A DNA stretch of 55,481 nucleotides from positions 1 to 55,481 of IMG/VR virus record IMGVR_UViG_3300050014_000090; one strand, given 5' to 3'. This document shows, piece after piece, positions 234 to 48,601 of this stretch. The position numbers and the translations under genes were made by a program. Below the pieces are notes generated by a model. It was not told the origin of the DNA. It saw nothing but the letters and a program-made list of their open reading frames with translations, and did not search any database. Origin of the DNA: a virus (taxonomy: Duplodnaviria > Caudoviricetes). Positions within the stretch are counted from its first letter, which is position 1, and each line of letters begins with the position of its first letter.

Positions 234-710
234 TTAAACTACCTTCAGTCGGCAAATTCCCTTGGCATCAAATACAATCGTCAATGTCCCGGCCGTGACG
301 TCCTTCTCAACGCCGAAGTCGAGATAACAAATCAGCGGCTTGTTGGTCGCTGTGTTGTCATAGACCACGCCGCCCTCAGTCACGAACGTCGACGATGTCC
401 ACGGAGCCGGTGCGGTTCCGCCAAACTTTAGGTAACGCAGCGAGTCATCGGGATCGGTGATCATTGCGAGCGTTGGTGTTGCGATTGACTGACCGCCTGC
501 CGTGTAGCCCGCGCCCTCGCCGTTTGTCGTCTCCATCGCTGAGGCAATTGTGGTGTAACTGGTCTCAGTCTCGTTGTTCGGGATATAGGTCGGCGAGTTC
601 GTTTGTGATTTAGCGAGTGCGAGTTTGATCGTGTCCGTGAGCCAATTGATTCGCTCCGTCGCGTGACCGACCATTCTCAGCGGCCCGCCTTCATACATTG
701 TTCCAACCAT
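234..710 (-). CDS. Putative virion structural protein, paralog of 48602..49471
   Basis: INWLTDTIKLAL, GYTAGG and PLICYLDFG motifs shared with the paralog; GGAG RBS. Confidence 0.7.
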   Translation of the reverse strand: MVGTMYEGGPLRMVGHATERINWLTDTIKLALAKSQTNSPTYIPNNETETSYTTIASAMETTNGEGAGYTAGGQSIATPTLAMITDPDDSLRYLKFGGTAPAPWTSSTFVTEGGVVYDNTATNKPLICYLDFGVEKDVTAGTLTIVFDAKGICRLKVV

Positions 711-2324: not shown

Positions 2325-3518
2325 TTAGTATCCCCATGTGCATCCGGTCAATGCCGCTGCGGAGGCGACGTGTCGCATTCCGAAGTCGTGCATGCTGATT
2401 GCTCTTATGACCGTCTCATCTCTCGAGAATGGAGACACAAGAGTTCCGCTCAGATCGTATGCGGCCTCACTCGAGGCGTCGATTCTCATGGTCATCGCAT
2501 CACCGATGATCAACTCAGGCGCTTCGACGAGGTATATGTAGTTCGACGTCCCGCTGTCGATCGTCATTTGGGTCGTAGTCACGACCGGATAACCCCACCA
2601 AACCGGGTTTGCTCCCTGAACCTCGGGGAACGCTAGAGCGCCCGTTGAAGTTCTTACGGTTGCGAGCCAGTTCTTTGTAGTGGGTCGCATAATCCACGAC
2701 CGTCGTGTGTCGGGAACGTTGGCGTTGTCGAGCAGCGTTTGAACACGGCCCGCGTCGAGAGTTGCCGTGATTGCGGTTGGCGTTGCAGTCATAGCGATTT
2801 GATTGCTCGTTTGCATAACGTTCCGCAGGCCGACCGGAGTGTTTGCTTCACCGTCGCCCTCCATAAACGCGAGGTCTTCTCTCAAGGCCATTCGCGTGAC
2901 CATATCCTGCCTGACAATCTGATCGGCATTCTGAACGGCGAAGTTGAGCAGATCATTCGAGATCGCAACTTCACATCCGAGTTTGCGTCCGACGAGGTTC
3001 AATTGTCCGAGCGTCTCCTGTGAGGTTTGAATGTTCGCACCTTCATAGAGATACGCGGCAGTTGCTCCGCCGGTGATTCGTGGAATGCTGAGTTGTCCGT
3101 TGACAAGTGGCATTATCGTCGCGCCGATCTTCCGCATGATTGCGGTTGGTATGAGCAGTTCGATGATCTCCGTTGATAGAACATCGGGGATTAAAAAGCC
3201 GCCTGCCGTGTCGGTGCTCGCTTGCATTGCCTTGAGTGCAGTCGTGATCTTTGACTTGTCGCCAAACTTCCGCTGTCCCCAAGAGAATGACTTATCGATG
3301 TCGCCTTTGCCCTGTGCAAGAGCGATCATAAGACCGCCGATCGGGTCGACCTTCTCCGCTTTATTTCTGTCCTGATAATCTCGCTCTGCGGCAAGCATTT
3401 GATAGAGACCCAAGGTTTGCCGGTCTTTGGCGTCCTTCACGGCATCCGTGAGGCGCTTGCCGATCGACTCCTCGATCATCTCCTTCAATTGCAGGCGAGT
3501 CGCTTTTATCTCTGCCAT
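2325..3518 (-). CDS. Major capsid protein, HK97 fold
   Basis: GGFLIPD..S.EIIELL, ISNDLL, D.AF.EGDG...P.G, GYPVV motifs; GGAGG RBS before ATG 3518. Confidence 0.95.
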   Translation of the reverse strand: MAEIKATRLQLKEMIEESIGKRLTDAVKDAKDRQTLGLYQMLAAERDYQDRNKAEKVDPIGGLMIALAQGKGDIDKSFSWGQRKFGDKSKITTALKAMQASTDTAGGFLIPDVLSTEIIELLIPTAIMRKIGATIMPLVNGQLSIPRITGGATAAYLYEGANIQTSQETLGQLNLVGRKLGCEVAISNDLLNFAVQNADQIVRQDMVTRMALREDLAFMEGDGEANTPVGLRNVMQTSNQIAMTATPTAITATLDAGRVQTLLDNANVPDTRRSWIMRPTTKNWLATVRTSTGALAFPEVQGANPVWWGYPVVTTTQMTIDSGTSNYIYLVEAPELIIGDAMTMRIDASSEAAYDLSGTLVSPFSRDETVIRAISMHDFGMRHVASAAALTGCTWGY

Positions 3519-3531
3519 CTTTTTTCCTCCA

Positions 3532-5193
3532 TTAACTCGCATTTGCCGCGAGTTCGTCGTCTAACCCTAATTCCTTTGCCTTCTCGTCATACGCTTCTTG
3601 AATGAGCGTATCGAGTTCTTCCTCTGAGATGATGATCATCTCCTCATCGGCGACCACTGGCTCGGGAACATCAGGAATCACGTCCTTTAGTTCCGCGACT
3701 TCGTGGCCGAGTGGATATGATACGTCAATGACCGGCTCGGTGACTGACTTGCCGTCGTCATCAGGCGGCGTATCAGGTTCCGGCCCTGCGGGTGCGGGTT
3801 TAGGCCCGGCCCCGGGTTTACCTGTCACTTGTGCCAAGACGCCATTCGTCAACTTGACGCCCGAATTATGCGATGTCACTGCGTCTCTAAGGTCGGACTC
3901 ATTCGCCGCACTCAGGACGCGCCCCGCTTTTAGTGTCTCATTAAGTTCGTTGATCTGCTTTTGCTGATCTTCGACCATCTTCTTGAGATCATCAATCTCT
4001 TTATTCACGTTCTCCTCCTCCTTTGTTGGCGAAGTTGTTGTCCATTCCCATGCCGCGCTTGTATCGCCGGTCGTTTCACCGACGGCCGCGCCCTGATAAT
4101 GACTGACATTGGCCGTTTGTCCGCCTGATGTAACATTTACTGCCACCATCTTCGGCGGCTTCTTGTCCGCGTTCTCCTCGCGCTCTCGTATGCGCTCTGT
4201 GACTTCTGTTATGTGAGAGCATTTCTCCACTAACTGATGATTAGTGGTAACGTCCTTTTTCCATTCGAGAGGACTTGGATCGGCGCACTTCGACGGTGGA
4301 TCGTCCTTCTTGTGCAAGTCACACATCGCTTTCTCTACCTGCGCGTGCAGCCAGTTCATGTCAGCCTGTGTGAAACCTGTCATTAGGTTCCCCTGCGCGG
4401 CGAACATGTGCAAGCGCCGGTGATATGCCGACAGATCCACAAGGTTCTCTTTACCGATCCCTGCCAACAGGTCGCTCTTATCGGTGTCAGTTATTGACTT
4501 TGATTCACTCTTGACTCGCTTCATCGCACATCCTTCCTCTGTGCAATAATCGGACATCTCCTTGAGGAACGCCTTGACCATCGCTTTGTCGTGACCGAAT
4601 GTTGCAGCACGATCAATGACCGCTTGCGGATTTGCGGGAACTGGAACGGCTGAGAACTCAAGTAAATCCCATTTGGTGAAGTGCGTGCCGTTGCCAAACA
4701 CGGAACTCATAGGCGATTCCTGTCTCTCCTCATCCTTTTCCTCGATCTCATTCCAATTATACGGATCGAACCCGATCGAGACAGCGTTGAGGAATCCTGT
4801 CAGATACATTCTCCTGACCATAGATCCTCGAAGTCCTGAGAATGATTCGTGATAGTTGTCGTCAGGTTGGAATTCGACGGCCGCCTTGACGCCTTGTTGC
4901 GTGACTTCCTTGCCCGCCTTTATGATCTTGATTGGTTGCGCCCACATCTCGACCGACTTGCCGACCGGAAGGTCATCATACTTGTGCGCCCACTGCATCA
5001 CGGCGTTGTTCGCATAGTTCTCGACCATTATACCGGCCGGGTCAACAATATCGCCGTCTCTATCGCGGACGTCCGTTGTGATCGTGAAGATTAACGGCGA
5101 TTTGTCGTCGTTTGGATCTTCCGCGACGGGTTTATCTACTTTAAAGAGTTTGCGAATGATCTCGCCTTGCTTCACGTCCTTTGCTAATGTCAT
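3532..5193 (-). CDS. HK97-family prohead protease with long acidic scaffold-like C-terminus
   Basis: DRDGDIV, WAH..LPVG, SIGF, LLEFSAVPVPANP; KAGRVLSAAN. Confidence 0.92.
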   Translation of the reverse strand: MTLAKDVKQGEIIRKLFKVDKPVAEDPNDDKSPLIFTITTDVRDRDGDIVDPAGIMVENYANNAVMQWAHKYDDLPVGKSVEMWAQPIKIIKAGKEVTQQGVKAAVEFQPDDNYHESFSGLRGSMVRRMYLTGFLNAVSIGFDPYNWNEIEEKDEERQESPMSSVFGNGTHFTKWDLLEFSAVPVPANPQAVIDRAATFGHDKAMVKAFLKEMSDYCTEEGCAMKRVKSESKSITDTDKSDLLAGIGKENLVDLSAYHRRLHMFAAQGNLMTGFTQADMNWLHAQVEKAMCDLHKKDDPPSKCADPSPLEWKKDVTTNHQLVEKCSHITEVTERIREREENADKKPPKMVAVNVTSGGQTANVSHYQGAAVGETTGDTSAAWEWTTTSPTKEEENVNKEIDDLKKMVEDQQKQINELNETLKAGRVLSAANESDLRDAVTSHNSGVKLTNGVLAQVTGKPGAGPKPAPAGPEPDTPPDDDGKSVTEPVIDVSYPLGHEVAELKDVIPDVPEPVVADEEMIIISEEELDTLIQEAYDEKAKELGLDDELAANAS

Positions 5194-5279
5194 TTGATCA
5201 CTCCGTAAATTTGGAATAAGACGAACAGGATCTCAAAGAAGATCAGCGTCACAATGAATTCTAAATAACTAAATTGCAT
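5190..5279 (-). CDS. 29-aa hydrophobic peptide MQFSYLEFIVTLIFFEILFVLFQIYGVIK
   Basis: GGAGGTG RBS; ATGA overlap with protease start. Confidence 0.55.
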   Translation of the reverse strand: MQFSYLEFIVTLIFFEILFVLFQIYGVIK

Positions 5280-5292
5280 TTGTCCACCTCCG

Positions 5293-6729
5293 TTATCGTC
5301 GCCTAAGTCTCACAACGTTCCCGCGTCCTGTGATCACCTTCCGGCCCTGTGTCCGAGGTTTGAATCCCATCAGCGGGATTGCCGGGGATGATGCCTCATC
5401 CGTTGATCCTTCCTCCTCCTCCTCGGGCGTGAGTTCACCATAAGGAGATTCCTCGGACGGTTCAGAGACGGCGTTGAGATTGATGTTCATCGGCAACGGG
5501 AAGCGTTCGCCCATTTGATCAGGCAACGGTTCCTCGCCTGCCTTCGCACGCACCTCGTCGATTAGAAAAGCGTATGGATGCGCCGACATCACGGAGAGTT
5601 GATAATCCTTATCTTCCGCGATCGGACTGACAAAGTCGATCTCTACCTGACCAGTGTCATCGAACATCGGGACGAGTTGCTTTTGGAACGCTTCTCTCAT
5701 TTGTGTGAGCAGCGGCGTGAGTGTGTATTTGGAAAAGAACATATCGGCCGCCTCGATCGTGGCACGGTTAGAAGATGAAAGTATGCCGACGATCTCAGGC
5801 GGCAGGCCGAAGACTTGAATGATTGTGTCACGTTCGTATTGGCGCAACTGTGTGAACTGCATCGATTGGAAGTCCTGCTTAAAGGTCGTGATGTCGACCG
5901 CCTCACTCATGAAGTGCGGCTTAAAGGCGTTCCCAAAACCGGCCTGCTTCTCGACCCATTCCTCTTGCATCCGCTTCGTCTTCTCGGGATTGAGGCCTTT
6001 GCCAGTGATCAGGATGTCAGGTCGTGCTTGATTCTCAAAGAAGTTCCGTATGGTCTTCGCTGCTTCCTCGTCGGTCGTGAGTTCATCATCCAATGCTTGA
6101 GCAATTCCCGATCCGCGTCCGTATGGTGAGGTAGGATCAGGATCGAGCAGCCATAGAACCTGATCGTATGGGATGGGGAATTGCCCGTTTGGAAGTGATA
6201 AGGTGAATGCCGGTTCGTCAGGCGTTGGCAACTTCGTTATCTTGTCAGGAGTGATCGGCCATATTTGCCAACCTTCGGGCGTCTTGTCCCAAATGCCAAA
6301 CGCTTCGCCGACCGTTTTAAGATGAACTGTCCACAAGAAGACGATGGTTTGCCAAGAAAAGTAAGGATGCGGCTGCGATAAGAAGATCTCGAGAGGATGC
6401 TTCTGTCCCTCGAGGAGATCATTGAGCGGAATCATTTGATTGGTCTCAGGATCTTCCGCCAATCCGAGCCATTCAACGCCCGCCGTGCTGCTTGCGATCT
6501 TGCTTACTGCCGCACGGAACCACGGCAGTTCGTTGTATGATTGTAAGAACTGCGGAACGCCTCGCTTCGTCCCGCCAACCTGTCTCGATTGGTTTAAGAA
6601 CGTTGTAAAAAAGCCTGCCGATCCGCTTGTGCCTGCGGCCATGCCGCCTAAGCGAGACCCGGCCTTGGTAAATGACTTGGAAAAGGTACGGGCGCGAGTG
6701 AGCAATGAGTCAGTACGTCGCGTAGGCAC
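5293..6729 (-). CDS. Portal protein, HK97 family
   Basis: GEAF, YGRGS, FFENQARP, FGLPPEIVG, DEVRAK.G..PL motifs. Confidence 0.93.
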   Translation of the reverse strand: MPTRRTDSLLTRARTFSKSFTKAGSRLGGMAAGTSGSAGFFTTFLNQSRQVGGTKRGVPQFLQSYNELPWFRAAVSKIASSTAGVEWLGLAEDPETNQMIPLNDLLEGQKHPLEIFLSQPHPYFSWQTIVFLWTVHLKTVGEAFGIWDKTPEGWQIWPITPDKITKLPTPDEPAFTLSLPNGQFPIPYDQVLWLLDPDPTSPYGRGSGIAQALDDELTTDEEAAKTIRNFFENQARPDILITGKGLNPEKTKRMQEEWVEKQAGFGNAFKPHFMSEAVDITTFKQDFQSMQFTQLRQYERDTIIQVFGLPPEIVGILSSSNRATIEAADMFFSKYTLTPLLTQMREAFQKQLVPMFDDTGQVEIDFVSPIAEDKDYQLSVMSAHPYAFLIDEVRAKAGEEPLPDQMGERFPLPMNINLNAVSEPSEESPYGELTPEEEEEGSTDEASSPAIPLMGFKPRTQGRKVITGRGNVVRLRRR

Positions 6730-6789
6730 GCCTTATATTTGATCGTTATAGCAATTAAAGACAAATGCGGCCTCCGTAAGGAGATTGAT

Positions 6790-6808
6790 TAAAAAAAAGA
6801 GAGAGGAA
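6790..6808 (-). terminator. Oligo-T terminator-like tract
   Basis: TTCCTCTCTCTTTTTTTT immediately after stop of 6809..6946. Confidence 0.45.
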
Positions 6809-6946
6809 TCATTCCATCTCTTTGAATCCGCTGCATGGATCATGACTAAACAAACATAGGTGTTTATCGCACGTCACTAGGATCTTGCATACTGTGTAGC
6901 CATCAAACGTGATGCTTTCACAGTTTAAACATTCTGTATCTGTCAT
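6809..6946 (-). CDS. 45-aa Cys-rich protein MTDTECLNC...
   Basis: Manual translation; ATGA coupling to upstream ORF; 6 Cys. Confidence 0.55.
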   Translation of the reverse strand: MTDTECLNCESITFDGYTVCKILVTCDKHLCLFSHDPCSGFKEME

Positions 6947-7122
6947 GCCGTTCCCTTCGTTGTCGGATCACAGAACTCAAAGATCTCGCATGTCTTGCAG
7001 AGATCCTCTTGTTTGCATACGTCACAACATTCGCGTCCTTCCAAACAGAAGATACACGTCATGCCCCCGGCTTTGTAACCGGGATGCAGGACGCACTTTG
7101 TCGTTCGTCGCTTCTTTGGCAT
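6943..7122 (-). CDS. 59-aa Cys-rich protein MPKKRRTTKC...CIFC..ECCDVC..LCKTC..FC
   Basis: AGGAGG RBS; 9 Cys; manual translation. Confidence 0.6.
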   Translation of the reverse strand: MPKKRRTTKCVLHPGYKAGGMTCIFCLEGRECCDVCKQEDLCKTCEIFEFCDPTTKGTA

Positions 7123-7418
7123 TCTTTGTTCCTCCTATCCCTGCGTGAGTCCTCGGCCTCGCACAGTTCACATGATAACATGCGACGTTTGAGCATAAAT
7201 AGTTAAATTGCTCCGTTTGCCAAATAGAGGTCGTGCCGTTGTTGTCGTGCTAAAAAGGGTTCAAAACGGACGACGTCAAGAAGCAGCGATCCGAATTACT
7301 CAAAGGACAAAGGAAAAAAGTCGCGGGATTAACCCGGGCGGACGATCACTCTTGATCTTGGCGTCCCTTTGTTTTCTTCCGTCCCCGATTGAATACGGGT
7401 CGAGTCAATCCCTGCATT

Positions 7419-7463
7419 AAAGAGAGGTGAGGCCCGGGAGAACGAAAGCAAAGACCCGGGCCT
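7419..7463 (-). ncRNA. Candidate hairpin small RNA or terminator with anti-SD tail
   Basis: 9-bp stem AGGCCCGGG/CCCGGGCCT followed by CACCTCTCTTT; ATAATTAAG about 25 nt upstream. Confidence 0.35.
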
Positions 7464-7491
7464 ATTGGCCAGTACTGAAGACGATCCTTAA

Positions 7492-7677
7492 TTATCTTCT
7501 TGCCTTAAAGACCTTGTGAATCTCTTGCAGTAAGTCGTCGATTGCCAACACGACCAATAAGATCGTGAAGATAATCAGGCCGACAATTACCTGATCCGGC
7601 CTTGACTTCGCTGCTCGAATATTGTGACCCTCGCATTCACACGTTCCCTCAAGTTCGCACAGCGCACAGTTGCTCAT
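7492..7677 (-). CDS. Small membrane protein with N-terminal Cys motif
   Basis: ATGA overlap with protease stop; CALC..CECEGH and VIVGLIIFTILLVVLAI. Confidence 0.55.
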   Translation of the reverse strand: MSNCALCELEGTCECEGHNIRAAKSRPDQVIVGLIIFTILLVVLAIDDLLQEIHKVFKARR

Positions 7678-8597
7678 TTGCTCGTCACGATATTGAGGAT
7701 CTTCTTGAGCTTTTGTTCGCACGCTGTCGGCGCAGGCCCGGGCGTTGGTGTAGGCGTTGGCGGCACAGGCGTCGGAGTCGGATTGATCTCCGTCTCGCCT
7801 GCGATCACTCGAGAGTCACGCACAAGGCCCGCAGTTATGTATTGCTCAGGCAATAACCCGAGGCCGCCTTTGAATTTGCCGAATGCCTTGCCCCATCCTT
7901 CGCCCCAAGAGTTGAGTGTCCACAGATAACCCGGCTGATAACCAAAGAAGGCCATACAATGACCGCCGATCGATTCCTCATTCGCTCCGGGATAGGTTAT
8001 GATCCCATCGCTGCCGACGTTCTCTATCTGTGCATAGACGGGCGTGCCGTACACAACGGGCAATCCTGTCACGGCGAGACAAGTCTTGATGTTGGCTAAT
8101 GTTGCGACGTATCCTTGCGCTGAATCGAGGAGATATGTGTTGTTCGTCTCGTCCTTGACTGCATCGTCGACGACTTTCAAAGGCGGATTGGCATCCATCT
8201 CATTCGTGTCATAAGGCCAATCGGTCTCAGGTGCGACGCCATACTTGACGGTCGCTGTTACTCCATCGGCAATCGTTGATCCGTTATCGCCGGGGAAGTC
8301 TCCGCCAACGATCCTCGCCATTCGATACTCATAGTTGCGGCATCCCAAGACGGCCGAGCCTGATTGCTTCATCTGCAATCCCTCGAATGCCGAGGTGACG
8401 CCGTGAGCAACGCAAGATCCTTCGCTGCCTTGATCTTTGACTGTGCTGACAAGATTGGTGATGTCGCACGTTGTCGGCAATACTGCGGGCGGCGTTACGA
8501 ATCGCTCGTATCGCAACCTTCGCGGATCGGGAAGTTCCCGATGCCATCCCATACCATAGTTCTTTTTTGGTGTTCTTATTCTACTAACATTTACCAT
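7674..8597 (-). CDS. Papain-like (C1A-type) cysteine peptidase
   Basis: VKDQGSEGSC (Gln/Cys), GGHC (His), NSWG (Asn); Pro/Thr linker near C-terminus. Confidence 0.92.
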   Translation of the reverse strand: MVNVSRIRTPKKNYGMGWHRELPDPRRLRYERFVTPPAVLPTTCDITNLVSTVKDQGSEGSCVAHGVTSAFEGLQMKQSGSAVLGCRNYEYRMARIVGGDFPGDNGSTIADGVTATVKYGVAPETDWPYDTNEMDANPPLKVVDDAVKDETNNTYLLDSAQGYVATLANIKTCLAVTGLPVVYGTPVYAQIENVGSDGIITYPGANEESIGGHCMAFFGYQPGYLWTLNSWGEGWGKAFGKFKGGLGLLPEQYITAGLVRDSRVIAGETEINPTPTPVPPTPTPTPGPAPTACEQKLKKILNIVTSK

Positions 8598-8599
8598 CG

Positions 8600-8830
8600 T
8601 TAAACCTCCACGATCTTCGTCGTGTAGGATTCACATCCCTTGCCGAGGATGTAGTTCTCGACGCCGACTGCACAACTCCCGGGCCGCACGACGTCGGCCG
8701 GAATTTCAAGCGTTGGTTTGCACAGTCCGCAATGTTCACAGGTCTTGCACGGCAAGTTGTTCTTTACGTAATCGATCGACGCATCCATAAAGAACCCGCG
8801 TTCGTCGTGAGGCAGTCGTATTGCTGTCAT
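8600..8830 (-). CDS. Cys-rich hypothetical protein
   Basis: CKTCEHCGLC...C...GCESY; start revised to MTAIRL. Confidence 0.55.
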   Translation of the reverse strand: MTAIRLPHDERGFFMDASIDYVKNNLPCKTCEHCGLCKPTLEIPADVVRPGSCAVGVENYILGKGCESYTTKIVEV

Positions 8831-8832
8831 AT

Positions 8833-9018
8833 TCACTCTCCCATATCCTGCACCTCTATTCGAACCCGCTTGTCCGCTTGCATTCGTTGAACTGCCTTGA
8901 CCGCTGCTTGATTCATGAACGTGGTGATCCACGCCTCGAAGTCCGTCAGCGCCGCGTTGCTTACTTGCTTCGCTCCTGCGGCTATTAATGCATCGTGTAG
9001 TTGTTGCTTACTGATCAT
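8833..9018 (-). CDS. Histone-fold protein with truncated alpha3
   Basis: Gapless match to archaeal HMf pattern: AGAKQVS..A and R-x6-D clamp (RVRIEVQD); AGGAGGTGA RBS. Confidence 0.75.
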   Translation of the reverse strand: MISKQQLHDALIAAGAKQVSNAALTDFEAWITTFMNQAAVKAVQRMQADKRVRIEVQDMGE

Positions 9019-9032
9019 TGATTATCACCTCC

Positions 9033-9200
9033 TTAAACTTCCTTCCAACAATCATCGGCGTCTTCGCGTTTGACTGTAAGCATAACTCGATAACCTGCTT
9101 CCTTGAGCGTGTTGATTGCGTCCTTGGTCTTCGCCTGCCAAATGCTATCGTCGTGGAACATCTCGCGCACCTTCATATCCACGTCGATATACTTCACCAT
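9033..9200 (-). CDS. Hypothetical protein
   Basis: MVKYID start overlaps upstream stop. Confidence 0.45.
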   Translation of the reverse strand: MVKYIDVDMKVREMFHDDSIWQAKTKDAINTLKEAGYRVMLTVKREDADDCWKEV

Positions 9201-9358
9201 ATCAACGCGACTGTCAATGCGATCGCAAAGACCCACGCGATCAACGTTGCGACAAGTCCCATCGGATTGACAACGTTCTCCGTGCTCCTATACGTTGCGA
9301 TCCACGACGTTATCGCTGCCGCGCCTATTGCCACGGCCATTAGTTGAAACGCATCCAT
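9194..9358 (-). CDS. 54-aa two-helix membrane protein
   Basis: MDAFQLMAVAIGAAAITSWIA...LVATLIAWVFAIALTVALIW; fills intergenic gap. Confidence 0.55.
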   Translation of the reverse strand: MDAFQLMAVAIGAAAITSWIATYRSTENVVNPMGLVATLIAWVFAIALTVALIW

Positions 9359-9359
9359 C

Positions 9360-9617
9360 TTATCGCTCCGATGGATGTTCCATCATCTCGCCGCCTGTCG
9401 GTCTTGGAGTCGGAACGATCCCGTCGCCAATGACCTTACAGTTCACATCGTCACGCCATACAAGATCGGGATAAGTCCCGTCGTTGTTCATCTTACGTGG
9501 CCGAATCCCATACTGAATACAGCCATTGAAGTATTCAATCACGCCGACAACGATGCCCCGGAACCCGGTGACATTGTCCTCGACTTCCTTGCCTTGTATC
9601 TCATTCCATTTTAACAT
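9360..9617 (-). CDS. Conserved phage-type hypothetical protein
   Basis: G.EVED.VTGF.G.V.G...Y.NGC.QY motif; GGAGG RBS. Confidence 0.65.
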   Translation of the reverse strand: MLKWNEIQGKEVEDNVTGFRGIVVGVIEYFNGCIQYGIRPRKMNNDGTYPDLVWRDDVNCKVIGDGIVPTPRPTGGEMMEHPSER

Positions 9618-9628
9618 TGCAACCTCCT

Positions 9629-9880
9629 TTATTCATCGTCGGGATCTTTGAATTTAAGATCCGACATATCGGTATATCCTTCGTTGATTAGATCTTGCCA
9701 ACCGCCCTGATGGTGCTTCTCATAGATCGTATGACCGTATGTTGTTGTGCCTGCGCTGACTTGTATGCGTATGAATTCGCTGTTCGCTATCTTGTCGAAC
9801 CCTTTGGTCAACGTGATCTTGTCGACCTTGATCTCATCCGCTATTGATATTATCATCTTATCAAACTCCGCAAGACTCAT
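9629..9880 (-). CDS. Hypothetical protein
   Basis: Coupled ORF. Confidence 0.5.
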   Translation of the reverse strand: MSLAEFDKMIISIADEIKVDKITLTKGFDKIANSEFIRIQVSAGTTTYGHTIYEKHHQGGWQDLINEGYTDMSDLKFKDPDDE

Positions 9881-10047
9881 CGCATCAGAACCGCCAACAC
9901 AATGATCGCCACGCCTGCCAATGCCCGCGCATATCGTTCACCATCAAACCATACGCTGTGATAGTTGCTTGCGATTAAGGCGCTGCCTATTCCATCGATA
10001 ACTATTGCGGCCCCGATTATGATCAGGAGCCAGTTGTATATGTTCAT
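9877..10047 (-). CDS. 56-aa two-helix membrane protein
   Basis: MNIYNWLLIIIGAAIVIDG...ALAGVAIIVLAVLMR; AGGTGA RBS. Confidence 0.55.
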   Translation of the reverse strand: MNIYNWLLIIIGAAIVIDGIGSALIASNYHSVWFDGERYARALAGVAIIVLAVLMR

Positions 10048-10058
10048 TGCTTCACCTA

Positions 10059-10343
10059 CTATCTATACGGCCATAGAAGATCGTCACGTCGTTTGATCAC
10101 GACTGCTCCGGGCCGTTCCTCATCGAGTTCCATAACCTCAATCGGGCCGTCCTTGTGTTGGATCTCGATCGTGTGCTTCGTTGGATGCGGATGATACTCC
10201 GGCTTAATCCCTGTGTCCCAATAGTTCATCAGGCGAATGACCATATCGTCCCAAGTCTCAGTCGGCAATCGATAATGTGTCAGTCGTTCCTTGGTCGTGT
10301 CATAGATCTTAATCGTCCGTGTCTTGCCGTTCATTGGAGCCAT
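10059..10343 (-). CDS. RHH-like DNA-binding protein
   Basis: TIKIYDTTKERL...ETWDDMVIRL pattern. Confidence 0.65.
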   Translation of the reverse strand: MAPMNGKTRTIKIYDTTKERLTHYRLPTETWDDMVIRLMNYWDTGIKPEYHPHPTKHTIEIQHKDGPIEVMELDEERPGAVVIKRRDDLLWPYR

Positions 10344-10468
10344 CGTCTCACCTTACCTTTGCGATCCAATAAGCGATTAATCACCGTGTCATAGTTCTCA
10401 TACCATCCGCTCTCGTCCCATAGTCGCTTAACTGTTGAATCATCAAGCGTGATCGTCGTGTCGGCCAT
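10331..10468 (-). CDS. RHH-like protein (45 aa)
   Basis: TTITLDDSTVKRL...ENYDTVINRLL; GGAGGTGA RBS. Confidence 0.6.
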   Translation of the reverse strand: MADTTITLDDSTVKRLWDESGWYENYDTVINRLLDRKGKVRRWLQ

Positions 10469-10616
10469 TCTCGATCACCTCCATAATGTCGATCCTTGTG
10501 CAGGTTCCGGGCGGTTGGAAGCTGTATATGCTGCCTTTGTCCAGTATCACCTCAAGATATGACGGCGATACGACGCCCGGTTCGATTGTGGTCATCGTTA
10601 TGCAAAGTCTTGTCAT
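10443..10616 (-). CDS. Hypothetical protein (57 aa)
   Basis: GAGGTGA RBS; manual translation. Confidence 0.45.
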   Translation of the reverse strand: MTRLCITMTTIEPGVVSPSYLEVILDKGSIYSFQPPGTCTRIDIMEVIENGRHDDHA

Positions 10617-10717
10617 TGTCTCACCTCTTGAGTTATCGAATATTAAGAAAAATCTTTCCGGTTTAGGATAATTTATCTTCGCGTTCTACCGTGTCCGCCT
10701 ATATCCTGCGTGTTTTT

Positions 10718-11218
10718 CTAAGAATACCTCGCAAGTTCTCCCCTGACTTTTATTCCACATCTTTCTAACCACAAATTCCACGCTTCGAGTCCTGTAATGC
10801 CCTCTCTTTTGGGTCGCCTCCACAAATTTTTGTACCTATAAACTCGCAGGATTGTATCGGCAAACTCAACGGGTGGTAAATCTTGAGGTTCTTGCGGTTG
10901 TGTGTGTGTCGTAAGCATCCAAATTGTTGGTTTTTTTGTTGTGAGATCATCAGTCACGGTCTCAAATGATTTTCTCTGCCCCCAGTTTTTACCGAATATG
11001 GATTTCGCTATATCGAACCCCCTCAATTCTTTAGAAATTTCTTCGTCGTAAAATTTCGTCTCTCCGAACCAGTAATATTTGTCATGGATCTCTGCAAATG
11101 CATCTATATCAGTGGGTGATATTTTTCCCATACCATTTTTCCCGGGGCATTCGAGCCCTTTAAATAGCACTATTTGTCGATATGGTTGCCTGTATTTATT
11201 GAAACCTAGTTTCTTCAT
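10718..11218 (-). CDS. Putative PD-(D/E)XK nuclease-fold protein
   Basis: PTDID...GETK motif; follows the methyltransferase. Confidence 0.5.
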   Translation of the reverse strand: MKKLGFNKYRQPYRQIVLFKGLECPGKNGMGKISPTDIDAFAEIHDKYYWFGETKFYDEEISKELRGFDIAKSIFGKNWGQRKSFETVTDDLTTKKPTIWMLTTHTQPQEPQDLPPVEFADTILRVYRYKNLWRRPKREGITGLEAWNLWLERCGIKVRGELARYS

Positions 11219-11285
11219 AAACTCCCCTGAGCAGTTCGCTATTCCAAATGTTGCGGGGACTAATGTATCCGCAAACCTTGTTACT

Positions 11286-12293
11286 TTACTCTTCTTTATC
11301 GTTGAACCACATCTCTTCTCGTTGTTCTACTGCGGCCATTTCGTCTCCCCAAGATGTCCACCCCGGGCGTTTGCCGCGAGCAAAGAGTTCTATCTTTCGT
11401 GCTTCGGGATACATATCTTCAATGATTCGATAGACAACACCGGGTTTACGACTGTGCCTTGCCGATTTCTCCCGAATAACTGAGCGAGGTAGTGACGCAT
11501 CGGGAGGAGACGCCATCTTGCCCTTTCGCCCGATCAATAGATATTCGTGCTGTATGCGAACGATGTGTCCAAGTCCCATGCGTTCTTTGTCCCATACCAT
11601 GCTTGTTCGATAGGTGAATCCCCAAGCATTCAAGACCGAAAGTCCTTCCTCCAATTTCGGCGACGTGACCCATAGGAATAGCATCGCATTCTCGGCCGAC
11701 GGAACGTCCATTGCTTTGATGTCCTCAAGTTCCATCGTTGGATATTGATGTTCGATCTGCCGTTCCGGGGTTGTCGTCCCTACGTCGTACTTCCACGGCG
11801 GATCGGCATATATTATGTCATATTCACCTTCAATGCTTGGGAGTGATTCGGGTTCTGTGCGATTGATATCACGGACTGCTTCGCGCAGTTCTTTGACTGA
11901 CCAATCATTCGCTTCCGCTTCATCCAATAGTTTGTCCCCATCCTCATCGGGGTGGACTCCTTGAACTGCTTGATGATGGCTCCACGAAAGATTTTCCCGA
12001 CGTCGGGAAAATTGAAACCTCCCTGCCATCGTCTTTTCATTTGCTACGGATTGATAATCATATCCCGTGTTTTTGATTGCTTCTTTGTACTTGTCCCCAT
12101 AACGCAGCTCGCCATAGTTGAGCCAATCTCCAATAAGCCATTGAATTGCTCCTTCAACTTGTCGTATCTTAGAACCAAAATCACCCCATTCCACAACGGT
12201 CGGATTGCCTGTCACGACAAGACCCACGCGCGTCGGAACAAACATGGCATCCGCCATTAAAGCCAGTTCGTTTTTGTCGACCATTTCAATCAT
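11286..12293 (-). CDS. MT-A70-family adenine methyltransferase with N-terminal LmbU-like domain
   Basis: ADPPW, LFLWVT, WGF.Y, HSRKP, ELFAR; WLIGDWL..G..RYG and LSWSHH. Confidence 0.92.
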   Translation of the reverse strand: MIEMVDKNELALMADAMFVPTRVGLVVTGNPTVVEWGDFGSKIRQVEGAIQWLIGDWLNYGELRYGDKYKEAIKNTGYDYQSVANEKTMAGRFQFSRRRENLSWSHHQAVQGVHPDEDGDKLLDEAEANDWSVKELREAVRDINRTEPESLPSIEGEYDIIYADPPWKYDVGTTTPERQIEHQYPTMELEDIKAMDVPSAENAMLFLWVTSPKLEEGLSVLNAWGFTYRTSMVWDKERMGLGHIVRIQHEYLLIGRKGKMASPPDASLPRSVIREKSARHSRKPGVVYRIIEDMYPEARKIELFARGKRPGWTSWGDEMAAVEQREEMWFNDKEE

Positions 12294-12510
12294 TCATCTC
12301 CCGCCCGATTAACGATCGACATGAGGACGTCCATGTCTTCTCTGACCTGCTCAATCTCTGCGCGGGCAATGCAAACCTCGTCAAAGAGGAGCTTTGTTCG
12401 CAGTAACGCACCTTTGCGCTTTGCGAGGTGCTTCATATTGCGATATATGTCCTCGATGCGGTCTTGAAGATGCGACGTGTTTATCCACATCTCCGACATT
12501 GTTCGTCCCA
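12290..12510 (-). CDS. Hypothetical coiled-coil protein
   Basis: Fills gap; exact start uncertain. Confidence 0.45.
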
Positions 12511-12512
12511 TC

Positions 12513-12695
12513 TTAAGACATCCCAATGGTTTTTCTGACTTCCAACGCCGCCTCATAGACTTGTAGGAGATGTTCTAAAAAATCAGCGTCGGTCGCTCTA
12601 CTGTCCCAATGCTTATAGTTGTCACGAAGTTGAGTCCATGCCTCGCGTGTGTGCGGATAGACTCTCAGGTTCAACGTGGCTTTATGGTTGGTCAT
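12513..12695 (-). CDS. RHH-like protein
   Basis: LNLRVYPHTREAW...TDADFLEHLL. Confidence 0.5.
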   Translation of the reverse strand: MTNHKATLNLRVYPHTREAWTQLRDNYKHWDSRATDADFLEHLLQVYEAALEVRKTIGMS

Positions 12696-13099
12696 AGAGT
12701 TGTAAGCCCGAGGATAATGTCGGTCTCCGTCTTGATGTCGCGTCGTTGTTCGTGAAGCCTGAGCAGTTTTGCCTTGCGTATCTCGATTTGCATCGTGAGG
12801 TCGCGCATTGCGTTCCGCCTGACGCGATACTTCTCACTCTTGTTGAGTGTGAGCAGAACGGCCGCAGCTTGTGCGTCTACATTCGGATAATACGGCTTGC
12901 CTGTTTGCGGGTTTATCTGACTCGCATCGACACGCGCCTCGGCTTCGTATGCTGCCATCTCGTCTTTGAATGCGTTGAATTCGCGGTTGTTTTCCGCGAG
13001 CGTTGTGCTTAGTTCTAATATATCATCGGCCGCTTCGTTTAGGTCAACTGAGACCTGCCTTGCGACCGTCTTGGCTGCTTCTATGTCCATAATTCTCAC
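12692..13099 (-). CDS. Coiled-coil hypothetical protein
   Basis: Helical ORF coupled to neighbours. Confidence 0.55.
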   Translation of the reverse strand: MRIMDIEAAKTVARQVSVDLNEAADDILELSTTLAENNREFNAFKDEMAAYEAEARVDASQINPQTGKPYYPNVDAQAAAVLLTLNKSEKYRVRRNAMRDLTMQIEIRKAKLLRLHEQRRDIKTETDIILGLTTL

Positions 13100-13376
13100 C
13101 TCTTAAATCATCGATAACGGCGTCGTAAAGGTTAATCCGTTGCATAAGTGCATTCCGCGTCGCCGCATCCCAATCGTTTGTTAATTTATCCACGTATCCG
13201 GCACGTTTGCGCTCGAGGACGTTAAGAGCAATGTTTTTCATAGCTTCGGATATTGCGGCCTCGACGGCTTGACCAAAATTAAGAATGTTTGCTTTGAACT
13301 GCTCGACGCCTTCAATTACTAATTCAAATTCCTCCCCGGCTTTTGGAGCGCCATACCAATAATTCTCGTCAGTCAT
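13044..13376 (-). CDS. Hypothetical protein
   Basis: GAGGTGA RBS. Confidence 0.55.
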   Translation of the reverse strand: MTDENYWYGAPKAGEEFELVIEGVEQFKANILNFGQAVEAAISEAMKNIALNVLERKRAGYVDKLTNDWDAATRNALMQRINLYDAVIDDLRGENYGHRSSQDGRKAGLS

Positions 13377-13379
13377 TTT

Positions 13380-13484
13380 TCACCTCTCGACATACAGCTT
13401 TCGCCCGAGGTATTGAATCACTAAGCTGAAAATAAGCCCGATGCTTATCCCATCGAGCAGATAGATTAACTCCACTTCACTCAT
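13380..13484 (-). CDS. 34-aa membrane peptide
   Basis: MSEVELIYLLDGISIGLIFSLVIQYLGRKLYVER; GGAGG RBS. Confidence 0.5.
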   Translation of the reverse strand: MSEVELIYLLDGISIGLIFSLVIQYLGRKLYVER

Positions 13485-13956
13485 TTTTAGCCTCCAAAAA
13501 TTCGTCATCCGTTTTTGTGAACTTGCTCAGATTGCAGTCGCTACAAGAGAGAACAATATTTTCGATTAGGTTACGGCCCCCCCTCGAAAGCGGAATCCTG
13601 TGCTCAACGTGAACCTCCCGATCGAACGACGCATAAAGCAGTTCGCCGCAGTAAAAACAGAAGCCTTCTTGCTGTTCAAATAATGTATTTAATTCGCTTA
13701 TGGTGTACCCGCCGGAGTTATCACTATATTCTCGCGCTCTGCGATTGTGATCGTACATCCTGAGCTTGTCGGGATTTGCTTTTTTCCATTGTCGCAATGC
13801 TTCGTTTCTTTTTTCTTTGTTAACCTCGCGGTATTTGCGATGATACTCGAGCATTTTGTCTCGATTCTTTTGGTAATACTCGCGCTGGTATCCCGGATGC
13901 GCCTCATTAAACTTGCGCTTTGATTCCCTCGCTTTTTCTTTTTGGCGATCATTCAT
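13477..13956 (-). CDS. HNH endonuclease
   Basis: CFYC...EHRIPLSRGG.N...N....C..CN..K. Confidence 0.9.
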   Translation of the reverse strand: MNDRQKEKARESKRKFNEAHPGYQREYYQKNRDKMLEYHRKYREVNKEKRNEALRQWKKANPDKLRMYDHNRRAREYSDNSGGYTISELNTLFEQQEGFCFYCGELLYASFDREVHVEHRIPLSRGGRNLIENIVLSCSDCNLSKFTKTDDEFLEAKNE

Positions 13957-14140
13957 GTGCGGCCTCCGGGTGCGAACACTGCAAATGCTCATGATGGCGG
14001 ATTGAATAGTCGCACGCCACGCACTCAATGTATGGGATAAACGTCTCCTGATGCAAACCCAAACACTCAACGTAGAGCGTGACGTTTACCGGCTCGGGGA
14101 CGTCATAGATGTCTTTGCGACGCATTCTAATACATCCCAT
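13949..14140 (-). CDS. Small Cys/His protein
   Basis: C...CVAC...C.HP. Confidence 0.45.
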   Translation of the reverse strand: MGCIRMRRKDIYDVPEPVNVTLYVECLGLHQETFIPYIECVACDYSIRHHEHLQCSHPEAAHE

Positions 14141-14318
14141 AGGTCAAATCAAAGATAACGTCATCCATCGTGACCTTCCGGGGTTCTCCGCTTGCGCATG
14201 CATTTTGATCTACTCCGATCTGCGTATCCTCGCGGATCTTGTTGAGTTTTTTCCAGTTGTCTATCGAAATTTCAATTAAGACGGTCTCAGCGGCATCGGT
14301 TGGCATTGGATGTGTCAT
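14127..14318 (-). CDS. RHH-like protein
   Basis: LIEISIDNWKKL...VTMDDVIFDL; GGAGG RBS; start approximate. Confidence 0.45.
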   Translation of the reverse strand: MTHPMPTDAAETVLIEISIDNWKKLNKIREDTQIGVDQNACASGEPRKVTMDDVIFDLTYGMY

Positions 14319-14595
14319 GTATGCTAACCTCCCTGCCTTGTGCCTCAAGTCTCGCTTTAAGCAGGTCGATCTCATCGAGGACGTATTGAAGATCGACTTC
14401 GTGTAGAACTTCGTTGCTCATGCTTTCGCACCTCCGTTCGACCAAATGCCCTTGACAAAAGAGTATTTCAGCACGGTCTCCGTGGCGGAGAAGTCGATAT
14501 TCCTGCCCGGATTCTCGTCTTTAAAAAGTTCGATCACTTCACACGCGATTATCTCGCGTTGATATGCTGCCAATGCGGTCATTTTATCTCACCTC

Positions 14596-14627
14596 AAAAA
14601 GAAAATAGCCGGGAGTTCTCCCGACTA
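14596..14627 (-). terminator. Intrinsic terminator-like hairpin
   Basis: TAGTCGGGAG-AA-CTCCCGGCTA followed by TTTTCTTTTT after the lipoprotein stop. Confidence 0.65.
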
Positions 14628-14630
14628 AAT

Positions 14631-15263
14631 TCACGCTATTATGTAGTATCCCATTGTTCCCCACGACGAGGCATATTGCGACGTTCCGGCGTATGTTCCG
14701 CCGATTGTGATGTCCCCGGGTAGGAGAGGCACAAGTCCGGCGGTCGAGAACGTGAAAGTCCCATATCCGTTGCTTCCGGTCGTTGCCGACCCGAGTTGCT
14801 TGCCTGATGCGTCAAACGAGACAGTTTGTCCCGGAATCGGAACAGTCTTTGCGCTGACTGTGAACGTGAAAGTGATGTCCGTTCCGCTCTTTATCGGGTT
14901 CGTGTTGCCTGAGATAGAGACTTGCGTCGGGATCTTGGTGACTGTCGGCGTTGCAGTCGGAACCCACGTGCTCTGATCCTCGCCGTGCAAATTGCGAATA
15001 GTCGGCTCGGCGGTTGGCGTTGTTGTTGGCGTACCCTTTGGCATATTACTATTAGGTACGGGTGTTGCGACTGCCGCCGGTGCAACTGTCGCTGTAGGTT
15101 TGACAACGGCCTTCGTTGTCTTGACCGCTGTCTTTGTTGTATTATTGTGTGCCGTCGACGTTACTGTTGGGACTGCATTGTTGCTCGGACTTGTACATCC
15201 GCACATTGCGACGACGACGCCCGCGAGGACGCACAACGTCAGAAATTTTTCGGCACTTTTCAT
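14631..15263 (-). CDS. Lipoprotein with Pro/Thr linker and C-terminal Ig-like domain
   Basis: Hydrophobic signal plus AMCGC lipobox; V.F...G..LG.ATT...G...F...Y.G...Y pattern. Confidence 0.75.
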   Translation of the reverse strand: MKSAEKFLTLCVLAGVVVAMCGCTSPSNNAVPTVTSTAHNNTTKTAVKTTKAVVKPTATVAPAAVATPVPNSNMPKGTPTTTPTAEPTIRNLHGEDQSTWVPTATPTVTKIPTQVSISGNTNPIKSGTDITFTFTVSAKTVPIPGQTVSFDASGKQLGSATTGSNGYGTFTFSTAGLVPLLPGDITIGGTYAGTSQYASSWGTMGYYIIA

Positions 15264-15273
15264 AATGTCGCCT

Positions 15274-15492
15274 CTAAAAATTCCCGACCTGCCGAACTCC
15301 GCTTGCGAGTTGATCCGCAATGCGCTTCAACTGCCACGCAATCTCTGCTTGTATATCTATACTTAGCGCCTGTCCTGTATCTGCGCCGCTACCGAATATC
15401 AGATTATGAATGTATTGTTCCCTGTTCTCAACGGTGTTTGACATTTTTTTAGCCCTCTCTTTGTTGTTTCCTATTAGGAAACGATTGAACAT
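15274..15492 (-). CDS. Hypothetical protein
   Basis: Fills gap; start uncertain. Confidence 0.45.
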   Translation of the reverse strand: MFNRFLIGNNKERAKKMSNTVENREQYIHNLIFGSGADTGQALSIDIQAEIAWQLKRIADQLASGVRQVGNF

Positions 15493-15493
15493 A

Positions 15494-15640
15494 TTAGAAC
15501 TGACCGTGCTTTTCGAGTAAAACGTCGATTGATTCGCTCATAGTCAATCGCTTGGCTTTTCGTGCTGATTCCTTCAATTGGAAGCGCTTTAACTGCTCCC
15601 GCGTCTTTTTCTCTATTTGGATTGTGGCCAGTTCTTTCAT
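15494..15640 (-). CDS. RHH-like protein (48 aa), probably leaderless
   Basis: ATIQIEKKTREQLK...TMSESIDVLL; TATATA about 25 nt upstream. Confidence 0.6.
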   Translation of the reverse strand: MKELATIQIEKKTREQLKRFQLKESARKAKRLTMSESIDVLLEKHGQF

Positions 15641-15663
15641 GTAATCTCGTATAGGTCGCTCTG

Positions 15664-15684
15664 TGTATATATGTGTTGCTATAT
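15664..15684 (-). promoter_or_regulatory. Archaeal-type TATA promoter with ATAGCAACA motif
   Basis: ATAGCAACACATATATAC; 9-mer shared with 24238-24246. Confidence 0.5.
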
Positions 15685-15695
15685 GCTTATTAAAA

Positions 15696-16187
15696 CTACC
15701 TTAGATCTGAGAGACATTTCTCAAGATTAAGCAAACCATTGGCGTCTTTTTTGAGTTGCGGATATTTGCCGGGTAAGTCCTTCGGATCAATAGCAACCTC
15801 GCCCTCGAGGAATGCGCCGCATACGTGACTCCATGGGAGCAGATAAAACTCGTTCTGCTTCGGGCCTCGTCCCTGCTTAATCTCAGCGGCGAGGATTCCA
15901 AACCGGCCAGTGTCCTCAATGAATTCGGTGATTGTGGTGATTTGGTGCTTGCCTTTGCTGCGCTTCCAAGAGCTAAAATAGAACTTTGATGTCTTGGTCG
16001 GATTGATAGATTTGACTTCTATCGCGAGATAATGATCAGGATTCCTCGAGTCGACAAGGACGTCAATGTATTGAGTATAAAACCGTGACTGCTTCAAGCG
16101 ATACGCGAGGCCCGGCTGCTCCGTGGCTGATAAGTATTCATTGATCAATTTGACAATGCGATTCTCGCTCGGAGATGTGCCTGACAT
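15696..16187 (-). CDS. Holliday junction resolvase (archaeal Hjc/RecU-like PD-(D/E)XK)
   Basis: E..IV, YRLKQSRF..Q.IDVLVDS, YLAIEVKS, GR.G.LA.E. Confidence 0.75.
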   Translation of the reverse strand: MSGTSPSENRIVKLINEYLSATEQPGLAYRLKQSRFYTQYIDVLVDSRNPDHYLAIEVKSINPTKTSKFYFSSWKRSKGKHQITTITEFIEDTGRFGILAAEIKQGRGPKQNEFYLLPWSHVCGAFLEGEVAIDPKDLPGKYPQLKKDANGLLNLEKCLSDLR

Positions 16188-16189
16188 CG

Positions 16190-16459
16190 TTATTTATCTG
16201 CGTGATGGATCACAAATAGAAGTCTATTGAGCCGTGCAACATCGAGATCGAGTTGCTTCCATAGTTTGATCCCGGCTTCCATTTGAACCTCGAGCTTGCT
16301 GATCCGTTTTTTGAGATCCGCCGAATAATCCGTGTCTTCTTCGAGATCTTGAAGTCGCGCTTCGTGATCCGCAAGTCCCTCTTGAATCGTCTTATGTAAC
16401 GTGGTCGCTAATTCAACTGCTCGGACTTCCAAGCCGTGCAGATCTTCCTCGCGCATCAA
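16190..16459 (-). CDS. Coiled-coil hypothetical protein
   Basis: Heptad pattern; coupled. Confidence 0.55.
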   Translation of the reverse strand: MMREEDLHGLEVRAVELATTLHKTIQEGLADHEARLQDLEEDTDYSADLKKRISKLEVQMEAGIKLWKQLDLDVARLNRLLFVIHHADK

Positions 16460-16650
16460 ATCTCATCCTCTTTGATCTCGCCGTCCCGAATCCTGCGGCC
16501 TAACTCTTGCAGGCATTTGTCGCAATAGAATCTACCTCGGTATAGGTGAATTCCATCCATCGCTTTATCTCTGACGCCCTTGCACTCCTTTAAAGGCGTG
16601 TTGCATTCCTCACAGCCTCGTTTATCGAATTCTCCTCTTGGTTCTATCAT
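16456..16650 (-). CDS. Small zinc-finger protein
   Basis: CEEC...YCDKC. Confidence 0.55.
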   Translation of the reverse strand: MIEPRGEFDKRGCEECNTPLKECKGVRDKAMDGIHLYRGRFYCDKCLQELGRRIRDGEIKEDEI

Positions 16651-42744: not shown

Positions 42745-42764
42745 TGATATACGGTTTAACTCCT

Positions 42765-43214: not shown

Positions 43215-43235
43215 GTTTGTTCACTCCTTTACGAC

Positions 43236-43604: not shown

Positions 43605-43620
43605 TGTTCAACGCCTCCGT

Positions 43621-44064: not shown

Positions 44065-44077
44065 CTCATATCACTCC

Positions 44078-44563: not shown

Positions 44564-44577
44564 ATCGTCCCTCCCGG

Positions 44578-47881: not shown

Positions 47882-47882
47882 T

Positions 47883-48584: not shown

Positions 48585-48601
48585 TCATTTCTGCCTTACG
48601 C

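Follow-up and report, generated by a model that had tools for sequence, protein, structure and literature searches.

The window analysed here, 55,481 bases long, is the IMG/VR virus record IMGVR_UViG_3300050014_000090 of a tailed virus. Its minus strand carries nearly all of its genes. One of these, at 8833..9018, encodes a protein of 61 residues that is related by family profile to archaeal histones and is predicted to adopt a histone fold in which the third helix, alpha3, has almost disappeared. We call this protein the mini-histone. Its open reading frame (ORF), the longest reading of its frame, lies within a packed string of small genes, laid out as follows.

8833..9018, minus strand: mini-histone gene, 61 codons plus TGA (ORF list, translation, profile matches)
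9026..9034, minus strand: Shine-Dalgarno site AAGGAGGTG (read from the sequence)
9033..9236, minus strand: upstream small gene, at most 67 residues, no Pfam match
8600..8830, minus strand: downstream cysteine-rich gene, 76 residues, no Pfam match
7674..8597, minus strand: papain-family (C1) peptidase gene (Pfam Peptidase_C1, expect value (E) 6e-9)
7492..10616, minus strand: packed string of 12 small same-strand genes, including the mini-histone gene (ORF list, gap table)

An earlier reading of the letters alone (hereafter the sequence-only reading) had described a 61-residue ORF with a strong ribosome-binding site. The ORF list and the translation confirm this, as does a GGAGG at 9032-9028, 9 nucleotides (nt) ahead of the ATG (9018-9016). 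The TAA of the upstream gene (9035-9033) overlaps this ribosome-binding site, and the ATG of the downstream gene (8830-8828) begins 2 nt past the mini-histone TGA. The string of 12 genes is flanked by gaps of 101 nt (10617-10717) and 369 nt (7123-7491), with the terminase/MuF genes on one side of it and the portal gene on the other. We infer that it is an operon.

An ORF this short, which taken by itself matches neither Pfam nor PHROGs, could have arisen by chance, or could be the decaying and functionless remnant of a captured histone gene. We hold this to be highly improbable. At 90% identity the family falls into 35 clusters that hardly vary in length or at their ends: 31 of 36 rows start with MIS, and 33 of 36 end three residues past Asp58. 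Between the window and three related loci, the proportion of synonymous differences (pS) is 0.67-0.91, which is near saturation, and the proportion of non-synonymous differences (pN) lies far below it, at 0.15-0.35. A variant from a pond metagenome has two differences in the 186-nt gene, one synonymous and one giving Ala10Ser (the P0002 sequence), and at least nine in the 286 nt upstream. Each of the three related virus records in IMG/VR holds the mini-histone gene in a single copy. Together with the strong ribosome-binding site and the tight coupling to both neighbouring genes, selection and conservation contradict a chance or dead ORF; the ORF at 8833..9018 is a real gene.

Homology to archaeal histones and predicted fold

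Searched as a single sequence, the mini-histone matched only NNH6 in Pfam (E 0.048), nothing in PHROGs and only CENP-X in the PDB (E 0.67). A word-indexed search yielded five relatives. HMMER, run over 1.84 billion representatives without a length limit, gave nine relatives of 56-62 residues plus P0016, a coiled-coil repeat protein of 523 residues. The four matches of P0016 (E 6.6e-4) run through the low-complexity pattern 'AAG..L..K', and we take them as spurious; apart from it, this search held no fused or longer form of the mini-histone. A profile search returned 35 clusters at E 2.3e-18 or lower, followed by a gap up to the PF00808 histones (E 3e-4 to 2.9). The JGI pipeline names 13 of these 35 clusters 'histone H3/H4'.

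Two family profiles, A2 (14 rows) and A4 (36 rows), link the mini-histone to archaeal histones. A2 matches HMfA at E 4.1e-8 and HMfB at E 7e-7. A4 matches HMfA (3.2e-8), HPhA (7.8e-8), 'Archaeal histone A' (1.2e-7) and HMfB (8.4e-7). Positions 11-60 align to HMfB 12-61 free of gaps, including the segments AGAERVSDDA and RKTIKAED of HMfB. The ungapped match to these two segments, on which the sequence-only reading had built its case, is thereby confirmed. A PDB search with a small profile gave seven matches, all of them histone-fold proteins, and a language-model search placed the mini-histone beside clusters that carry PF00808. The bacterial histone HBb reached only E 0.1 with A2, aligned over 31-59 alone, and A4 did not retrieve it at E up to 1. 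No match was found among 50,697 phage records, either by the DNA of a 5-kb neighbourhood or by protein, and the viral structures of BFVD gave no meaningful match, with none of the 36 rows below E 3.6. By family profile, the homology to archaeal histones is significant, while the Pfam threshold is not reached. DUF1931 (PF09123), which the sequence-only reading had proposed for an HMM search, is not one of the 15 families matched by any of the 14 members at E up to 1; its sole trace is a 15% share of a single neighbouring Atlas cluster.

An AlphaFold model based on 36 rows has a predicted local distance difference test score (pLDDT) of 93.8, with helices at 4-13 and 21-48 and a three-residue turn at 56-58. 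The predicted parts are the following.

Residues 4-13: alpha1
Residues 14-20: loop L1
Residues 21-48: alpha2
Residues 49-55: loop L2
Residues 56-58: one-turn alpha3

In a Foldseek comparison with the PDB, each of the 50 rows listed is a histone-fold chain (H4, CENP-X/MHF2), at template modelling (TM) scores of 0.65-0.82 and root-mean-square deviations of 1.6-2.9 Å. This model supersedes an earlier one from 6 rows (pLDDT 79.8; Foldseek E 0.9 or higher). The turn at 56-58 and the Foldseek rows, the latter at E 0.019 or higher, are in keeping with the proposal of the sequence-only reading that this is a histone fold with almost no alpha3.

The homodimer prediction scores 0.44, as against 0.10 for the best of three controls. 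Of 30 proteins solved as one-chain pairs, 20 attain a mark of 0.44, as does 1 of 23 proteins known as single chains. Between the homodimer runs, the agreement over contacts is 93% or more, with a partner pLDDT of at least 83. Residues 52-55 touch residues 16-20 of the other chain, and further contacts follow alpha2, as in a handshake; the contact with the lowest predicted error joins residue 53 to residue 18 of the other chain. Computation thus shows the mini-histone as a histone fold with a plausible handshake homodimer, in which L1 is paired to L2.

Residues at the clamp, the tetramer interface and the DNA-contact sites

In the register of the profile alignment, mini-histone position n corresponds to HMfB n+1. 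The available part of Henneman 2018 describes an arginine-aspartate clamp, R52-D59, in HMfB, names R10 and R19 as its minor-groove anchors and reports that its tetramer interface requires L46, H49, D59 and L62. The clamp residues, R51 and D58 in the mini-histone, are invariant in 36 of 36 rows, which bears out the sequence-only reading. G15, at the HMfB stacking position G16, is equally invariant, and the full set of residues fixed in 36 rows is G15, A16, F27, R51 and D58. Besides F27, the aromatic core has W30 (31/36) and F34 (24/36). As that reading had also observed, the window copy ends three residues after the clamp aspartate (D58 and then three more), and the same holds for 33 of the 36 members. 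Position 59 is methionine in the window copy and isoleucine in 32 of 36. The best-conserved columns are those of the L1 and L2 loops.

At the tetramer interface, HMfB L46, H49, D59 and L62 read R45, A48, D58 and E61, so that one of four is kept. In the family as a whole, position 45 holds R or K in 29 of 36 and position 61 holds E in 31 of 36. Because L46, H49 and L62 are replaced by R, A and E, polymerisation into a hypernucleosome like that of HMfB is very unlikely.

At the DNA-contact positions, HMfB R19 reads Q18 in the window copy, K53 reads V52 and T54 reads R53; R10 reads D9, by an ungapped extension two residues beyond the stretch aligned by the hidden Markov model (HMM). The literal statement of the sequence-only reading, that R10, R19 and K53/T54 read D, Q and V/R, is therefore right under the HMfB register. 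The residue next to the R10 equivalent, at position 8, is R, K or H in 31 of the 36 members. The family has a median net charge of +2 (range -1 to +6).

Positions 18 and 53 are complementary. Exactly one of them is R or K in 36 of 36 members: 20 have Q18 with R53, 2 have Q18 with K53, 12 have R18 with T53 and 2 have K18 with T53. Q18 is thus joined to a basic residue at 53 in 22 of 36, while a basic residue at 18 is joined to T53, the HMfB state, in 14 of 36. On a tree computed without columns 18 and 53, each column requires a minimum of four changes, which always run in opposite directions. This suggests that the groove arginine has moved from L1 to L2. Because the two positions are complementary and touch across the modelled dimer, each L1-L2 site would bear a single basic side chain, and the window copy probably keeps one such side chain per site. 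With one R or K at 18 or 53 in every member, to say that the protein lacks the usual DNA contacts, as the sequence-only reading did in its heading, was an overstatement.

The viruses that carry the gene

Pfam assigns the following structural and packaging functions in the window.

5293-6729: portal protein
2325-3542: HK97-type capsid protein
Window: prohead protease/scaffold, tape measure protein, Dit and other siphovirus tail proteins
Window: terminase, MuF-like protein and integrase

CheckV estimates the window to be a fragment of 74% of a genome. We set this aside, as the related record G003 joins homologues of both window ends. G003 is collinear with the window across most of its length, and in it the homologues of the window ends (1-710 and 53307-55481) are found at 4840-5373 beside 5389-7320 (L011, 4840-7320); the homologue of window 234-710 (90% identical) adjoins that of 53307-55238 (48% identical). 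Because G003 unites homologues of the two ends, the window is probably a nearly whole and circularly permuted genome. The large terminase is encoded by separate ATPase and nuclease ORFs (17829-18587 and 19825-20640, 1.24 kb apart). The same split occurs in G003 (38385-39989, 12 nt apart) and in L015 (66-2113, about 430 nt apart), and is therefore inherited, not the assembly error of one record. Pfam scans recognised no replication gene in the window, and the window holds no tRNA genes.

The block from the MuF-like gene to the portal gene (window 9000-16600, G003 41400-49800) is highly variable among the related viruses. Only four genes of this block are common to the window and G003: the homologues of 15696-16187 and of 12692-13099, the histone gene and the peptidase gene. 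The histone and C1 peptidase genes thus remain in an otherwise variable block, and no record among the window and the related viruses shows a second histone gene (one match per record). The cysteine-rich 76-residue gene that separates the two in the window has no homologue in G003, L014 or L016 and is not conserved in relatives.

The peptidase gene shares the strand of the histone gene and follows it downstream at a distance of 236 nt in the window, about 0.5 kb in G003, about 0.8 kb in G002, 3 nt in L014 and 349 nt in L016. In G001, the peptidase homologue is 9 kb from the histone gene. The contig of L015 ends too early to show a peptidase, which leaves six informative loci. G002 and G003 have identical histone proteins and count as one lineage; they share a portal protein that is 69% identical. 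The peptidases of these loci are only 25-45% identical and the intervening genes differ. The G001 homologue (12647-13477, 51% identical) contains one in-frame TGA. The histone gene abuts the peptidase gene in L014, a more distant relative with a G+C content of 44%, which also encodes a 547-residue protein with an NrS-1 primase-polymerase helix bundle (5690-7333, E 2.8e-11).

Three small membrane-protein genes (9877-10047, 9194-9358 and 7492-7722) share the gene string of the peptidase. Pfam scans recognised no murein hydrolase elsewhere in the window genome, and the papain-family peptidase may form a protease-based lysis cassette with the membrane proteins of the string. Two adjoining small genes, 10059-10343 and 10331-10468, match DUF7557 (E 5.8e-8 and 2.4e-4).

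All members of the mini-histone family in the profile search come from JGI, ENA and Logan metagenomes, never from NCBI genomes. A 3-kb stretch is present, by at least half of its words, in 11 runs of 9 studies that cannot themselves have yielded the record and are from peat, from freshwater or unlabelled; all four of the runs compared (three peat, one pond) carry it. Pattern scans for the histone and for the capsid across one genome each of 185,579 species, which detect close relatives only, gave no relative.

As to the host, there are weak hints of an archaeon: the histone ancestry, the DUF7557 genes, a TrmB-type regulator in the window, sigma-70-like sites that show no excess (22, with 21.1 ± 4.9 expected) and the lack of a recognisable murein hydrolase. 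The DUF7557 family matches control genomes of Haloferax, Sulfolobus and Methanosarcina and also of E. coli. Three observations are neutral or hint at a bacterium: terminator-like sites of a hairpin plus T are mildly enriched (34, with 21.5 ± 5 expected), the capsid protein shares about 40% identity with capsids of Burkholderia phages, and siphovirus tail families are present. The promoter and terminator counts do not decide between the two. A 241-residue membrane protein retrieved only viral DUF7201 clusters in an Atlas search. No replication or lysis gene that would decide the host appeared in Pfam scans of the proteins of the window, G003 and L014/L016.

Possible roles and comparison with known histones

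We consider it somewhat better than an even chance that the mini-histone is a truncated HMf-type histone that acts as a dimer and, like bacterial HBb, binds DNA without wrapping it. Here, an HMf-type archaeal histone ancestor would have lost all of alpha3 bar one turn. The dimer would bind DNA of any sequence, through both of its L1-L2 sites and the beginning of alpha1, with Arg53 in L2 assuming the groove-anchoring role that Arg19 in L1 has in HMfB. With Arg45, Ala48 and Glu61 in place of the tetramer residues, and with alpha3 nearly gone, no hypernucleosome polymer would grow, and the separate dimer would, as is described for HBb, bend or coat DNA rather than wrap it. The place of its packed string between the terminase/MuF and portal genes, and beside the peptidase, suggests that the protein would be made with the late genes and would act at a late stage of infection, on DNA of the virus or of the host.

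Several points weigh against this reading. The single sequence misses Pfam. CBFD_NFYB_HMF (PF00808), for which the sequence-only reading had proposed an HMM search, is touched at E up to 1 by 6 of the 14 members, with a best value of 0.0088 and none shown above the cut-off. The E-values of the Foldseek rows are 0.019-0.07 and never reach 0.001, for so short a query. The homodimer was predicted from an alignment of our own, and its pass may reflect likeness to the well-represented solved histone dimers. DNA binding is predicted by way of positions 18 and 53, where only two independent pairs of switches fall on well-supported branches (sign test p 0.5) of a weak tree of 59 columns. Position 52, the equivalent of HMfB K53, is Val, Ile or Thr in 36 of 36, and the window copy, with a net charge of 0 and an isoelectric point of 6.55, is at the low end of its family. 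If the numbering is taken as ungapped, none of the ten HBb residues with the most DNA contacts is kept, and only position 53 is polar or basic. Finally, the timing of expression is read from gene order alone.

The tetramer substitutions fit either a dimeric DNA binder or a cap. In the second case, in a histone-bearing archaeal host, the mini-histone would act as a cap or decoy that heterodimerises with host histones or binds beside them and halts hypernucleosome growth, so that host chromatin is loosened or viral DNA is kept free of histone silencing. We judge this unlikely, while several observations speak for it. The nearest relatives are archaeal nucleosomal histones and not HBb (E 3e-8 as against 0.1 with A2), the protein retains the dimer core and the clamp but has R45, A48 and E61 at the tetramer positions, and 'capstone' variants that end hypernucleosomes have already been proposed among cellular paralogues (the available part of PMC11894787, citing Stevens 2020). 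The two DUF7557 genes, the TrmB-type regulator and the lack of a sigma-70-like excess add weak hints of the required host. Set against these, the 185,579 species genomes gave no histone or capsid relative, in pattern scans that see close relatives only, and the aromatic core (F27 invariant, W30 and F34 frequent) could favour homodimers. The capsid identity to Burkholderia phages and the mild terminator-like enrichment are neutral or point away from an archaeon, and neither decides the host.

A protein-binding histone fold with no role at DNA is distinctly unlikely in our estimate. Such a mini-histone might serve the papain-like peptidase as partner, inhibitor or chaperone, or else be an assembly factor. 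That five of six informative loci have a peptidase homologue on the histone strand, no more than 0.8 kb downstream, speaks for a partnership of this kind, as does the electrical neutrality of the window copy. CENP-X, the best single-sequence match in the PDB, and the TAF proteins have histone folds that often serve as protein-protein modules. However, the columns conserved best are those of L1 and L2, the DNA sites of histones, and the rule of one basic residue at 18 or 53 has no obvious sense for peptidase binding. In G001, moreover, the two genes are 9 kb apart, and their order elsewhere may reflect no more than a conserved module. A bolder combination, which we regard as quite improbable, is that the mini-histone caps or joins the hypernucleosomes of an archaeal host and forms, with the papain-like peptidase, a two-gene module that dismantles or reprogrammes host chromatin late in infection. 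If true, it would give archaeal viruses their first example of a takeover system directed at chromatin.

Histone-fold genes of prokaryotic tailed viruses are known only from sequence mining. The 61-residue family is small, simple and soluble-looking, and its arginine in either L1 or L2 amounts to a natural experiment. If the non-polymerising DNA-binding dimer is true, HBb-like behaviour can arise from an archaeal nucleosomal histone through loss of alpha3. Should the mini-histone instead cap or poison host histone polymers, it would be the first case of a prokaryotic virus that targets histone chromatin.

Among cellular histones, HMfA and HMfB of Methanothermus fervidus and HPhA (PDB 1b67, 1a7w, 1ku5) are homologous without gaps over the end of alpha1, L1, alpha2 and L2. 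They share with the mini-histone the AGA-x-x-VS loop L1, the spacing from L1 to L2, the Arg-Asp clamp, the glycine at G16 and the handshake dimer, which is modelled in our case. Unlike them, the mini-histone has an alpha3 of one turn, ends three residues past the clamp aspartate and is changed at the tetramer and DNA positions. The 'capstone' variants of archaea, which dimerise yet disfavour polymer growth according to the available part of PMC11894787 (citing Stevens 2020), are cellular paralogues with a full alpha3, whereas the mini-histone is viral and has all but lost it.

HBb (Bd0055) of Bdellovibrio bacteriovorus, which belongs to the 'bacterial dimer' group of alpha3-truncated histones, bends DNA and has an R51-D58 clamp, D49, I59 and a single-turn alpha3, as described in the available part of PMC11317129. 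The mini-histone resembles it, with 61 residues compared to chains of 64-66 (PDB 8fvx, 8cmp), R51, D58, D49, a hydrophobic M59 and an alpha3 of one turn, and both are dimers and not polymers, the mini-histone by its model. In contrast, the KT motif of HBb in L2 (K52/T53) reads V52/R53, sequence likeness is weak and, if the numbering carries over, the listed DNA-contact residues of HBb are not kept. The alpha3-truncated histones, in the available part of Schwab et al. 2024 (PMC11390915), have an alpha3 of 3-4 residues and an alpha2 that is 4-5 residues shorter. The mini-histone alpha3 (56-58) is of the former length, and its alpha2 shows no such shortening, the spacing being equal to that of HMfB. 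Because it keeps the HMfB spacing from L1 to L2, unlike the alpha3-truncated histones, the mini-histone suggests an independent truncation of an HMf-type histone.

Viral histone folds have been described in two sources. The 'phage histones' of PMC11390915 (e.g. A0A2E7QIQ9), as far as the available text goes, are alpha3-truncated histone folds in tailed-virus metagenome contigs, as is the mini-histone, and have a C-terminal helical tetramerisation domain and no R-x-T...D motif. The mini-histone has no such extension and carries R51...D58 in 36 of 36 and T53 in 14 of 36, so that the missing C-terminal domain and the kept motif rule it out as a 'phage histone' in that description. Liu et al., hLife 2025 (PMC13681535) mined IMG/VR 4 computationally for archaeal-like and bacterial-like histone-fold proteins of Caudoviricetes. 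Their material resembles ours in that both consist of short histone-fold genes of tailed-virus IMG/VR contigs known by computation only. In the available part of that paper, the clusters are named MFVHFP, BBVHFP, VHHHFP, VFFHFP, VTTHFP and VKHFP. A C-terminal helix is described for VTTHFP and BBVHFP, tetramers and a Lys-rich N-tail for VFFHFP, a KOW domain for VKHFP and conserved K8, K9, K47 and R48 for VHHHFP; none of these five descriptions fits the mini-histone. MFVHFP, which is Hmf-like and named there without a description, is the likeliest home of the family.

In the literature searched, the member lists of PMC13681535 and PMC11390915 aside, we found no description of the 61-residue family, of the swap and complementarity at positions 18 and 53 or of the constant company of a papain-like peptidase gene; the supplements of these two papers may well list the family. 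Taken together, the mini-histone family is a further example of the viral histone-fold genes catalogued in 2025 and not a new kind.

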